64,000 nucleotides of DNA from Alphaproteobacteria bacterium (GTDB taxonomy: Bacteria > Pseudomonadota > Alphaproteobacteria > SP197): positions 2,816,001-2,880,000 of the forward strand of contig OZ219747.1 in NCBI GenBank assembly GCA_964291265.2. Reading direction: 5' to 3'. The stretch's first letter is position 1. Every line of letters begins with the position of its first letter. Both the position numbers and the translations under genes were made by a program. Shown in pieces: positions 19,319-22,642 of the stretch. The notes beneath the pieces were generated by a model. It was not told the DNA's origin, did not search any database, and worked only from the letters and a program-made list of their open reading frames with translations.

Positions 19319-19480
19319 GGTTCTCCGGCAGGTTGACAGTCACGCATCTGGGCCACCGATGTCGTCTTCCGTTCGCAAGAGGTGATTTGACAGGTGATGA
19401 TATCGTTGTCTGAAAGGCGATGTTGCGGGTTGATCAAGCGTGTGGTTCGCGGTCGCCTTCCCCGCCCCACCAGGCGGCCC

Positions 19481-20682
19481 ATGGAGGGACGACCGCGCCT
19501 GGCGGACGATACCGGACACCGACAGATTGTCCATCGGCTGCTTCCCGGATCCCGGAAGAACGCACGCAGGCTGGCTGCTCTCGCTCACCGCCTGCCGCTT
19601 CGTCCGGAACGTCGTGCTCAACCGCCTTGGAGCAGCGGCGAGACTGGCGGGTGCGGAACGGCTTACCCGAGCGTTTCGTTCTTCACGGCTCGGCCAGGCC
19701 TTCACCCGGCTTCGCCGGTTCACGCCGCGCTTGCAGGAGATGCCGTGTGCGCTTGAGCGCTCTGCCCTCAAGCAGCGTGGCAACGATGTTTCAGGGGGCT
19801 GAGGCGGCCGCCTGAAATGCAAGCGGCGCGGGCATGATGAGCGTGTGCGCTCCCGGACGCCATCCGCATCCGTGGTGGCAGGCTCCACGTTCAGGAAGAT
19901 CGGGCCGACGACGCTGCGCCGCTGGGCAGGGAACCCTTGCCCCGAGAGAGAGCCGGTCCGTCATCAGGCGGATCGACGGCACGTGGCATGTGATCCGTCT
20001 GCTGCCAGGGTTGGCGGCTGTCGAGCGCCGACGACGACGGCACGGTGACCGGCATCGACATGAACGCAGGCCAGGTGGCCACCAGCGACGGCGGGATCCT
20101 CCATGCGCCGGTGACCGACCGCCTCGAAGCGCGGTGCAAGCGGTCGCAGCGGTCGCAGCGCAGGATGTCGCGCGGGCAGCAAGCGACGTGAACGCACCCG
20201 CCGCCGCCATGCCCGGACGGTGCGCAAGGATGGTCATGAAGCGGCGCACCTGGCGGCACCACGTCTTGCGGAAGCTGGCCGGCGGAACGGTCGTCGTGGA
20301 AGGTCTGAAGACCGCCGACATGACCAGGAGTGCAAAGGGCACGGACGAGCATCCCGGGACGAACGTGAAGGCGAGGTCCGGGCTGAACCGTGAAATCCTC
20401 GCCACGGGCTGGGGTGAGTTGCGGGCGATGCTCGCCGACAAGGCTCCGCGCCTCGTCTGAGGTGAACGCGGCGTATACCAGCCAGACGTGTGCGCAGTGC
20501 GGAACGGCTCAACGCCGCCTCGCGTCCGTCGCAGGCGACATTCACATGCGTGGCCTCATGGCCATGCGGACCTGAATGCGGCCCGCAACATCAGGCGTCG
20601 GAGACTGGCGCATCTGCACGAGGATGGAGCGTGGCCGCCAGGCACGATGATCCGTGAAACGGATCGCAGACTGACGGCATGA
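19481..20682 (+). pseudogene. tnpB: RNA-guided endonuclease TnpB (multiply frameshifted)
   Basis: Motifs spread over several frames: HRLLPGSRKNARRLAAL, ACRFVRN, RuvC-I GIDMN (20051), RuvC-II VVVEGL (20290), GLNREIL, YTSQTCAQCG and RuvC-III HADLNAARNI. Confidence 0.88.
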
Positions 20683-20708
20683 GCCTTTCAGTCAACGATA
20701 CAAGTCCC
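20551..20708 (+). repeat. tnpB 3' end / putative omegaRNA-right end, copy 1
   Basis: Direct repeat of 22456-22612 with 5 differences in ~158 bp. Contains the perfect hairpin GATCCGT-GAA-ACGGATC (20649-20665). Confidence 0.9.
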
Positions 20709-20710
20709 CC

Positions 20711-20740
20711 AAGACAGGCCGGCCGGGATCGGATTATACT
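20711..20740 (+). promoter_or_regulatory. Putative sigma70 promoter for a leaderless transcript
   Basis: AAGACA-18 bp-TATACT, ending 6 nt before the ATG at 20747. Confidence 0.35.
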
Positions 20741-20746
20741 TGGGGC

Positions 20747-21001
20747 ATGACGAACGGAGACCACGCCGATCTCGCGGCGAAGATGGCGGCATTGGAGGAA
20801 CGCATGAACACCCGGCAGGCCGAGTACAAGACCGACATCGCACTCCTGGCCAAGGAAGCTGCCGAGCGGGACAGGGAAGCTGCCAAGCGCGAGGCGCGCC
20901 TCGAGCGCGAGATCCGCAACGGCCTGCGATGGCAGATCGGCTTCACGCTCGGCGGCATCGCAATTGCTGTCGCTCTCATTGGCATCCTCATCCGCATGTA
21001 G
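20747..21001 (+). CDS. Small coiled-coil protein with C-terminal TM helix
   Basis: Heptad-rich N-terminal part followed by hydrophobic WQIGFTLGGIAIAVALIGILI; paralog at 21300. Confidence 0.75.
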   Translation: MTNGDHADLAAKMAALEERMNTRQAEYKTDIALLAKEAAERDREAAKREARLEREIRNGLRWQIGFTLGGIAIAVALIGILIRM

Positions 21002-21040
21002 TCTGAACCACCGCACCAGCATCAATGGGAGAGGCACACA

Positions 21041-21283
21041 ATGGCGGCTGACACTCTGGCGATTGTTCACCTCCTGGAGGCGGCAGGCGTCGAGCGTAGC
21101 GTGGCGGAGGCTCACGCGGCCGCGATCCAGACCGCGGTTGATCATCACCAGGATCACTTGGCCACAAAGGCCGACCTGGAGGTCCGCCTCGCCGCCATGG
21201 AGGCACGCCTGACCTGGCGCATGGTTGGTCTCCAGGTCGGTGTCGGTGGACTGATCATCGCGGTCCTGAAGTTCGTCCCCTGA
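21041..21283 (+). CDS. DUF1640/CCDC90-like coiled-coil membrane protein
   Basis: DTLA..LEAAG...AEA...LATKADL followed by a C-terminal TM helix; GGGAGAGG RBS. Confidence 0.75.
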   Translation: MAADTLAIVHLLEAAGVERSVAEAHAAAIQTAVDHHQDHLATKADLEVRLAAMEARLTWRMVGLQVGVGGLIIAVLKFVP

Positions 21284-21299
21284 TCCGCTCGTCGCGAAG

Positions 21300-21497
21300 G
21301 TGGCGGCATTGGAGAAGCGCATGAGCACCAGGCAAGTCGAGTACAAGACCGACATCGCACTCCTGGCCAAGGATGCTGCCGAGCGCGATGCGCGCCTCGA
21401 ACGCGAAATCCGCAACGGCCTGCGGTGGCAGATCGGCTTCACGCTCGGCGGCATCGCAATCGCTGTGGCTATCATCGGCATTCTCATCCGCCTCTGA
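21300..21497 (+). CDS. Shorter paralog of the 20747 coiled-coil/TM protein (possibly 5'-truncated)
   Basis: Near-identical EYKTDIALLAK...RLEREIRNGLRWQIGFTLGGIAIAVA, lacking one 7-aa unit; GTG start. Confidence 0.6.
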   Translation: MAALEKRMSTRQVEYKTDIALLAKDAAERDARLEREIRNGLRWQIGFTLGGIAIAVAIIGILIRL

Positions 21498-21566
21498 AGA
21501 GCCCGGTGCGGCTGCCCTGCCGCTTGGGCCTCAACAGTTCCCGACGACCGGGAAAGGGAGCGTCCC

Positions 21567-22121
21567 ATGACTGATCACCAAGGAGACACCCCGTGGAGGC
21601 ACGCACCGCCGGAGAGACTCCCCGGCGAGACGCTGGAGGAATGTATCATCCGCCGCGCCGCCAGGATGAGGAAGGTCCAGGCGTTCATCGCCGTCTACGC
21701 AGAAGAGATCGAGGCACTCGGCGACGGTCCGGAGGCCGATTGCCTTCTCAAGGCGATCCGCACCCTGCAGGACGAGGAAGATCATCTCTGGCTGCGGGGT
21801 GATGAGGAGAGATTCCGGCCCTTGATCCTCTGCTTCACGATCGGCGAGGAATTGGAGAAGCTGGAGGCGCTACGACCTTTCCCCTCCCTGGAGGTGGAGG
21901 AGGCGCAAAGGGACCTTGAGGATCGGAGCAACGTCTGCCACTACACGATCAAGGGCGACTTGATCAGGCTCCGTGGCGAGATGGACGAGGCGCGGTGCCA
22001 AGAGCTTTGGGAGAGGGCCTGCAGAGACGCCGCCGAAGCGCGCGACGAGCTCCTGGTTCAGGGCCTGATCCGCCCTCGCGCGGTCGGCCAGCAGCTACCG
22101 CCCTCGAAGGACTCCAGCTAG
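21567..22121 (+). CDS. Hypothetical acidic helical protein
   Basis: 184-aa ORF with GGGAG RBS; no recognised motif. Confidence 0.6.
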   Translation: MTDHQGDTPWRHAPPERLPGETLEECIIRRAARMRKVQAFIAVYAEEIEALGDGPEADCLLKAIRTLQDEEDHLWLRGDEERFRPLILCFTIGEELEKLEALRPFPSLEVEEAQRDLEDRSNVCHYTIKGDLIRLRGEMDEARCQELWERACRDAAEARDELLVQGLIRPRAVGQQLPPSKDSS

Positions 22122-22216
22122 CCAGAATCCTGCCGCCGCAGGCGCGGCCCCGGCGACATCTTCCGGCCGGGCGGCCAGGACCATTCTCTTGTCGGGTCCG
22201 TGGATTGCTGATGTGA

Positions 22217-22462
22217 CAGGGACTTGGCATGGTGGAGGCGCCCACGGGTTCACTTTGGGCCGGTTTCAGTGGCCCCTGCGGTGCATCAGGACTCACCGGG
22301 CTCGCTTTTTTGGGTGTTCGAGCAGAGCTGTCTTGTTGCGCCGTTCGGCGGCGCGTTCCCGGCTTTTGGCGCGGGGTCAGGAGCGAAGGTTCATCCGCCG
22401 GGCGGGATGAGGATAGCGTCGAGTTCGTCCTGGGCGCGGGCGGCGTAGTGCCGGTTGGCCTC
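22217..22462 (-). mobile_element. Right-end remnant of an ISAs1-like element
   Basis: Minus strand encodes EANRHYAARAQDELDAILIPPGG*, resembling a recalled ISAs1 transposase C-terminus. A CAGGG-initiated terminus sits at 22217. Confidence 0.5.
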
Positions 22463-22612
22463 ATGCCATGCGGACCTGAATGCGGCCCGCAACATCAGGC
22501 GTCGGGGACTGGCGCATCTGCACGAGGATGGAGCGTTGCCGCCAGGCACGATGATCCGTGAAACGGATCGCAGACTGACGGCATGCGCCTTTCAGTCAAC
22601 GATACAGGTCCC
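22456..22612 (+). repeat. tnpB 3' end / putative omegaRNA-right end, copy 2
   Basis: About 97% identical to 20551-20708; encodes HADLNAARNI...ETDRRLTA without any upstream tnpB. Confidence 0.9.
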
Positions 22613-22614
22613 AT

Positions 22615-22642
22615 TTGATATTGCGCGTGATTGCTTTATTCT
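22615..22642 (+). promoter_or_regulatory. Putative sigma70 promoter of the polyamine ABC operon
   Basis: TTGATA-16 bp-TATTCT upstream of the ATPase gene at 22803. Confidence 0.45.

Follow-up and report, generated by a model that had tools for sequence, protein, structure and literature searches.

A decayed tnpB element between inverted ends of the IS1595 type and a one-sided G at the insertion sites of its relatives

The stretch of DNA analysed here (the window) comprises 64,000 nt of contig OZ219747.1 of an alphaproteobacterial assembly (GCA_964291265.2; the genome is denoted G000 and window positions are 1-based). It carries, at 19393-22612, a decayed and cargo-extended copy of a small tnpB element that lies between terminal inverted repeats (TIRs) of the IS1595 type. 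The GG-initiated TIRs, shared with IS1595 elements, and the 8-bp target-site duplication (TSD) indicate that the element is a non-autonomous member of the IS1595 family. It was likely moved in trans by an IS1595-family DDE transposase encoded elsewhere, since its ends match those of IS1595-family elements without tnpB in the same genomes. Related tnpB elements are mostly preceded by a G directly outside the left TSD, and we consider it fairly probable that the whole represents a tnpB element within IS1595 ends that is moved in trans and retained, through the action of TnpB, at G-flanked sites.

The basic unit of the family measures 1.3 kb (left TIR, tnpB, right TIR), whereas in the window cargo and an additional right end have brought the copy to 3.2 kb. 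The 26-bp left TIR (19393-19418, plus strand) reads GGTGATGA-TATCGTTGTCTGAAAGGC and has its inverted counterpart at 22587-22612. The repeat arms (19401-19419 and 22586-22604) are identical at 18/19 positions and a further arm lies at 20683-20700, within an inner right TIR (20683-20708, minus strand) that is directly abutted by the tnpB stop codon (20680-20682); both the inverted core and the abutting stop had been recognised in an earlier, sequence-only reading of the window. That reading took the unit to span the outer ends, which holds for the outer TIRs and the TSD, but the canonical element stops at 20708, where no matching TSD is found, and the remainder (20709-22612) is an addition made up of cargo, a fragment of an insertion sequence (IS) and a second right end of 148 bp that is 97% identical to 20561-20708.

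The 8-mers ATTTGACA (left TSD, 19385-19392, plus strand) and ATTTGATA (right TSD, 22613-22620, plus strand) surround only the outer TIR pair and indeed agree at 7/8 positions, as was claimed before. All aligned congener loci (9/9) are without the element, and in the congeners G004 and G016 both flanks are joined over one 8-mer, reading gaggtg-TTTTGATA, so that the empty site that was to be sought in relatives was found with the predicted boundary. The presence of a single 8-mer copy in the empty site implies that the TSD is real and 8 bp long, and that the G before it (19384, plus strand; the predicted position of the target-adjacent motif, TAM) is host DNA. The ends are no chance repeats, because G000 contains about 10 left-end and about 25 right-end copies, several of them paired as 1.3-kb elements, and the congener flanks are joined over the single 8-mer. 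The other paired elements in G000 have decayed TSDs of 5-7/8 (by eye; one requires a shift past a run of G).

The tnpB gene of the window (19499-20682, plus strand) is a pseudogene within an element that is 83% identical to the intact element at locus L015. It had been described as frameshifted; it is broken, but this understated its decay, as it has 20 indels relative to the intact copy, stops and an E>G change at the RuvC-II glutamate, and gives only a sub-threshold PF07282 match. No intact tnpB was found in G000, where every match is a fragment or contains stops. DNA matches to the element occur in 12 of 40 relatives, 11 of them of the same genus, and intact 1334-bp elements with an open tnpB are present in G001, G004, G011 and G016. 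The intact homolog from L015 (P0001) is a TnpB with HTH_OrfB, OrfB_IS605 and TNB domains, scoring above the cut-off for NF040570 and far under that for NF038280. Its best curated relatives are IS200/IS605 TnpBs. Of 67 proteins of the TIR class, 64 have an intact RuvC D-E-D triad, which the window copy has lost. At the L015 site itself, the flanks meet in one contig of sequencing run X5 with 1342 bases (1334 + 8) left out (likeness 82), corresponding to an empty allele, and the same run contains the filled left junction; the flank joint is absent in four other runs at likeness 95. This is only a hint that empty and filled alleles coexist at this site.

From a scan of genome contigs the best 80 of 155 relatives were retained, representing 79 loci. 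By their record titles these belong to Pseudomonadota, Rhodothermota, Bacteroidota and Chloroflexota, and a name like Poriferihabitans hints that the hosts may be sponge-associated. Under a lenient rule a TIR pair is present in 72/79 loci, with an 8/8 TSD in 37 and a 7/8 TSD in 7; these 44 loci, with TIRs and a TSD of 7-8/8, were used for flank counts and the remaining 35 were excluded. Intact copies are present in all four phyla, and homologous tnpB loci do carry TIRs with 8-bp TSDs; where the sequence-only reading had named homologs without inverted ends or TSDs, or empty sites with other boundaries, as contrary outcomes, TIRs, TSDs and the predicted boundary were found. The right TIR mostly ends 14-31 bases past the projected end of the protein. 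Among 52 metagenome loci, mostly distant, no 8/8 TSD was called, a call that overlooked L154. Viral contigs contributed 5 loci, including the IS605-type L377 and a 48%-identical TnpB without clear TIRs (L376:2501-3694) that retains the 3' RNA stems of the clade, and the best plasmid matches listed are below 40% identity.

In more distant relatives, mostly with less than about 40% identity apart from a few higher partial matches, the ends are of the IS605 type, with a subterminal hairpin and GATGT(T/C)AA in 20 loci and a Y1 motif in 7 of these 20. FastTree separates the TIR class from these IS605-type relatives with weak support: 85 rows are grouped at 68 and 84 of them at 86; L091 is a long-branch row. 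As the support for the group is weak, we grade a single capture of tnpB by TIRs as likely only. Loci L009-L011, L024-L026 and L039-L040 were considered as non-TIR sisters and rejected, as they have TIRs.

The likely partner is suggested by the ends. The tnpB elements start with GG(G/C)GATTATATCCTTGACTGAA, while transposase-carrying elements in G002 and G019 start with GGGGATTATATACTTGACTGAAA, which is nearly the tnpB left end, and those in G011 start with GGGGATTATATACTTGACGGAAA; these transposase-carrying elements have TSDs of 7-8/8. A search with the end pattern, in line with the earlier suggestion to see which transposase lies between such ends, led to a 2471-bp element in G011 that encodes an IS1595 transposase between perfect TIRs and has an 8-bp TSD. 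The partner transposase scores above the cut-off for PF12762, PF12760 and NF033547, and the earlier proposal of a non-autonomous DDE-type element carrying tnpB is thereby supported and narrowed to IS1595. In 62 regions around such transposases 36 TIR pairs were found, 35 of which have a TSD of 7-8/8. PF12762 is present in G000 and in 10/10 other genomes with TIR-bounded tnpB that were searched. With query P0002 at E 1e-40 there was no match in the congeners G012, G016, G021 and others, and as G012 and G016 do carry TIR-bounded tnpB, co-occurrence is incomplete with that query. The window element contains no DDE_Tnp_IS1595 gene of its own, and G000 has two copies of the IS1595 transposase outside the element, one with a D>N change and one truncated at its 5' end. 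In agreement with the claim that tnpA is missing, no open reading frame (ORF) resembling a Y1- or serine-type tnpA stood out in the ORF list for 14000-28000 (the Pfam scan covered only 12 frames). Transposase-carrying IS1595 elements (L235, L237, L208, L230 and others) often contain methyltransferase- and restriction-like passengers, judged from motifs, and these might represent a further kind of retention cargo between ends of this type.

The last 150 bases of the tnpB elements contain conserved stems with double changes in 10/20 predicted pairs. In the window the predicted omegaRNA scaffold lies over the 3' end of tnpB (20560-20708, plus strand; the 5' limit is approximate), with one G>A change in the pseudoknot loop at 20600-20606; a second copy of the tnpB 3' end, scaffold and outer right TIR (22465-22612, plus strand) has an intact loop at 22504-22510. 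The predicted pseudoknot pairs a loop GGGA(C/T)T with the last six bases of the TIR. Including it, 91% of cells are paired and 15/28 pairs show double changes, compared with 26-46% in slid controls, and 0/500 shuffles were equally high, although the structure was derived from the same sequences on which it was scored and kinship inflates the counts. The loop C accompanies a G in the end in 22/24 cases, and the terminus AGTCCC occurs in 25/61 right and 9/61 left ends of tnpB elements and in 1/36 per end of tnpB-less elements. IS605-type relatives have the same hairpin, with a loop that matches GTT/GTC before the terminal AA of their GTTAA/GTCAA ends (by eye), and for ISDra2 a pseudoknot adjoining the guide has been described at the corresponding position (PMC10711439). 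The omegaRNA scaffold is thus predicted to close a pseudoknot on the six terminal bases of the TIR, and the IS605-type relatives have theirs in the same register. The guide would accordingly open with the right TSD, which in the window copy would form its first 8 nt, and the TAM would end at the G. The earlier idea of an omegaRNA running through the TIR fits with the covariation and with the predicted pairing of the last TIR bases, the RNA itself being a prediction; Rfam matched nothing in the window. Some miniature inverted-repeat transposable elements (MITEs) of 184-478 bp have lost most of tnpB and kept both TIRs and the predicted omegaRNA region (L490, L493, L495, L503, L544, G000:C1:384324-384801 and C2:4258948-4259401); possibly these act as guide donors for TnpB in trans.

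A distinction between elements with and without tnpB concerns the base next to the TSD. In the first set of tnpB elements the base outside the TSD is a G at 42/44 left and 16/44 right ends, whereas tnpB-less elements have it at 11/35 and 13/35 of their two ends (Fisher p about 1e-8 to 1e-9). Of 121 loci in a further set, 21 lacked a pair, 52 were duplicates and 48 held new elements; among the 30 new elements with a TSD of at least 7, G was found at 26/30 left and 7/30 right ends. Pooled, this amounts to 68/74 left against 23/74 right, with sites de-duplicated by exact flank, so that a few orthologous sites could count twice. In G000 all seven well-formed left ends have the G (by eye). As a control, non-autonomous elements without tnpB or omegaRNA were sought in 60 regions, 53 of which gave no pair, and one such element was found. 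We predict that the TAM of the TnpB ends in this G, just outside the left TSD.

The mechanism that we favour would begin with the capture of an IS605-type tnpB and its omegaRNA between IS1595 TIRs, after which the element would be moved in trans by the IS1595 transposase. With the scaffold pseudoknot now closing on the last six bases of the TIR, the right TSD would supply the start of the guide, from its first base on, and the G outside the left TSD would form the end of the TAM. TnpB would then cut an allele with one 8-mer, whether excised or never filled, and so drive repair from the filled copy. The filled site would be spared, because there the full guide match is preceded by the CCC of the TIR while the G has only 8 matching bases after it. 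Copies at non-G sites would be unprotected and lost. One IS1595 member forms circles that are joined through the 8-bp repeat (PMC12561309, the excerpt of which covers the circles and not the fate of the donor), and this fits a restored one-copy site. The window copy is incapable of such retention, given its broken tnpB and the failure to find an intact one elsewhere in G000.

Several observations weigh against this reading. Locus L154 has a C instead of the G, and the omegaRNA-bearing MITEs have the G in just 3/5 cases. TAM motifs in the IS605 family comprise 4-5 nt (PMC13565253), so that a one-base TAM would be far shorter. The RNA stems sit in the coding sequence of related proteins, and coding constraint and kinship both inflate the covariation. 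In the pseudoknot, a loop T accompanies an end T in 20/24 cases, giving a U-U mismatch, and the pair is kept in only 15/27 rows; the intact L015 end folds no better than shuffles (z -1.0). No element with both an IS1595 transposase and tnpB was found (0/36 TIR pairs from the 62 regions) and the capture step is unseen. The D>N change in the G000 transposase affects the second catalytic position. Finally, a toy model of retention arrives at about 93% G only when reinsertion follows about 1 in 10 excisions, and at 56-61% when it follows all of them; this need for about 10% reinsertion leaves room for steering at insertion.

The other explanations differ mainly in when and by what the G is set. 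It could be set at insertion, with the TnpB-omegaRNA complex either touching the transpososome or marking sites flanked by G, and thereby giving integration its orientation. In favour of this, the bias is very strong, persists with perfect TSDs and is absent from tnpB-less elements, and the inefficient reinsertion demanded by the retention model points the same way. RNA-guided transposon effectors such as Cas12k are nuclease-dead, however, unlike the TnpBs of this clade with their largely intact RuvC triad; moreover, a guide taken from the donor flank would mismatch new sites, and none of the 36 elements encodes both proteins. We thus hold steering at insertion to be quite improbable, and equally so its strong form, in which TnpB with a one-base G TAM would direct a DDE transpososome as a two-protein TAM-directed transposon in trans, unrelated to Tn7-like CRISPR-associated transposons. 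Alternatively, tnpB might be a mere passenger and the asymmetry a property of the transposase, which would read the target unequally through unequal left and right TIRs. The TIRs of tnpB elements do differ between left and right more than those of many transposase-carrying elements, and the control set of non-autonomous tnpB-less elements numbers just 1, but the bias recurs with different TIR variants and in four phyla, also where the TIRs agree at 23-24/24 positions (L098, L106, L123 and L136), and both the catalytic residues and the RNA stems are conserved. We regard this as improbable.

The prediction of a single G is also open to refinement: the TAM may be longer or lineage-specific (examples would be TG-, GG- or a motif that reaches into the leading A/T bases of the left TSD), and the scaffold may take in some of the right TSD, as in Fanzor and IS607 elements. 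Of the 74 pooled sites, 55 have T or G at position -2, and the TSD opens with A in 51/74 left against 24/74 right cases. Rhodothermales sites have GG in 9/14 cases (first set of 44), and the scaffolds of IS607 and Fanzor elements incorporate bases of the TSD or flank (PMC10711439). Conversely, the TSD is variable, tnpB-less elements likewise start the TSD with A (21/35, on the transposase-proximal side), and the predicted pseudoknot stops at the last base of the TIR; we hold a longer or lineage-specific TAM to be possible but unlikely. That the element is an IS200/IS605 or IS607 derivative (IS1341-like) with coincidental repeats and 8-mers has a vanishingly small probability. The protein is a TnpB by NF040570 with IS200/IS605 TnpBs as its best curated relatives, but coincidence is contradicted by the perfect TSDs at 37 of the 79 loci, by the single 8-mer of the empty site and by the ends common to IS1595 elements, and the subterminal hairpin and GTCAA/GTTAA end of the outgroup are absent. 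The IS200/IS605 family (including IS1341) is defined by the lack of TIRs and TSDs, hairpin ends and a Y1 TnpA (PMC13565253), and membership is refuted by the TIRs, the TSDs, the empty site and the ends shared with IS1595; IS607, which is characterised by a serine recombinase TnpA and by having neither TIR nor TSD, is ruled out by TIR and TSD together with the low NF038280 score.

Compared with known systems, the suggestion that this might be an undescribed system proved too strong: TnpB branches DDE-1 to DDE-6 with inverted terminal repeats, as well as solo TnpBs between such repeats that are mobilised in trans, have been published (Altae-Tran et al. 2023, PMC10691335). As in the present clade, tnpB there lies between inverted terminal repeats with its 3' end near the transposon end, and solo copies occur between the ends of transposase-carrying elements; unlike there, no element here has both genes (0/36). 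The present clade may be among these six branches. In that paper IS1595 has 0 mentions in the main text and 1 in the supplementary information, within a list of hidden Markov model profiles. A 2026 review names ISL2, IS630 and IS1031 as DDE partners (PMC13565253), and our literature search, which ran outside subscription journals, found no paper naming IS1595 as TnpB partner by title and abstract start.

With the zinc-ribbon groups of IS1595 the clade shares GG-initiated TIRs and an A/T-rich 8-bp TSD (PMC8101967, PMC12561309), and the partner has the expected Zn_ribbon_IS1595 and DDE_Tnp_IS1595 domains, in keeping with the 8-bp TSDs and the zinc-finger and DDE transposase described for IS1595 elements (PMC8101967), with passenger genes in autonomous forms. 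The tnpB element differs in lacking a transposase, in having tnpB as its sole gene and in its one-sided G, which is absent in transposase-carrying elements. The subgroup concerned is presumably that labelled ISNwi1. Similarly, the RuvC D-E-D triad, the zinc finger, the predicted omegaRNA over the tnpB 3' end and a predicted pseudoknot adjoining the guide are shared with ISDra2-type TnpB, and the nearest non-TIR relatives of the clade are IS605-type, but here there is no Y1 TnpA and no subterminal hairpin, a TSD is present, and the candidate TAM of 1-2 nt corresponds to no known preference of a transposase. Capture of an RNA-guided nuclease by a TIR/TSD transposon is likewise seen in Fanzor1 and Fanzor2*, although Fanzors put the TSD into the scaffold (PMC10711439), whereas here the variable TSD is the predicted guide seed, and the source here would be IS605-type instead of IS607-type.

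Why TnpB seldom stays with DDE transposons in bacteria is a question posed before (PMC13565253, PMC10711439), and the clade offers a natural test of it. Elements with and without tnpB share the same ends in the same genomes and the one-sided G is found only in those bearing tnpB, a contrast by which TnpB-driven retention could be counted from genomes alone. The data also suggest how an omegaRNA may survive a change of transposon: its pseudoknot would leave the IS605 end and form with the new TIR instead. Should the TAM truly be G or two bases, the intact 400-aa proteins would be compact nucleases with an unusually wide targeting range. The window copy is dead, yet its clade is a well-controlled and testable case.

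The added part of the window copy contains three small ORFs (84, 80 and 65 aa; 20747-21497, plus strand) with hydrophobic C-termini and only sub-threshold Pfam matches (DUF4337, XhlA, CCDC90-like), the first and third being about 90% identical in DNA. They are followed by a 184-aa ORF without Pfam match (21567-22121, plus strand), with paralogues at G000:C2:2786xxx and C1:252xxx, and by the truncated end of an unrelated 2.09-kb multicopy IS (22175-22462, no strand assigned). As the TSD fits the outer end, the composite either moved as a unit or acquired its cargo via recombination between two copies; the other long composites, L110 and L127, have insertions inside the 3' end and no duplicated right end. 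The insertion site lies between two divergent genes, one with a weak Sel1-like match and one encoding an ABC-type ATPase (by sequence motifs). Because the right TSD overlaps a sigma-70-like match (9/12; 22615-22642) that points at the ATPase gene, the insertion may be in the promoter of this gene.

Elsewhere in G000, at C2:896190-897300 (L551), the same small-ORF cargo adjoins a 110-bp right-end fragment and a helix-turn-helix (antitoxin-like) gene, which ties the cargo to right ends more than once. Another tnpB element (G000:C2:3966361-3973014) is interrupted by about 5.3 kb, in which a 504-aa transposase-like and a primase-like ORF are found. The 2.09-kb IS, which we take to be ISAs1-like, is present as a full copy at G000:C2:4086067-4088160, several near-full copies (97-98%) and many fragments; it contains a DruA-like region (PF14236) followed, across a frame change, by DDE_Tnp_1 and DDE_Tnp_1_assoc.

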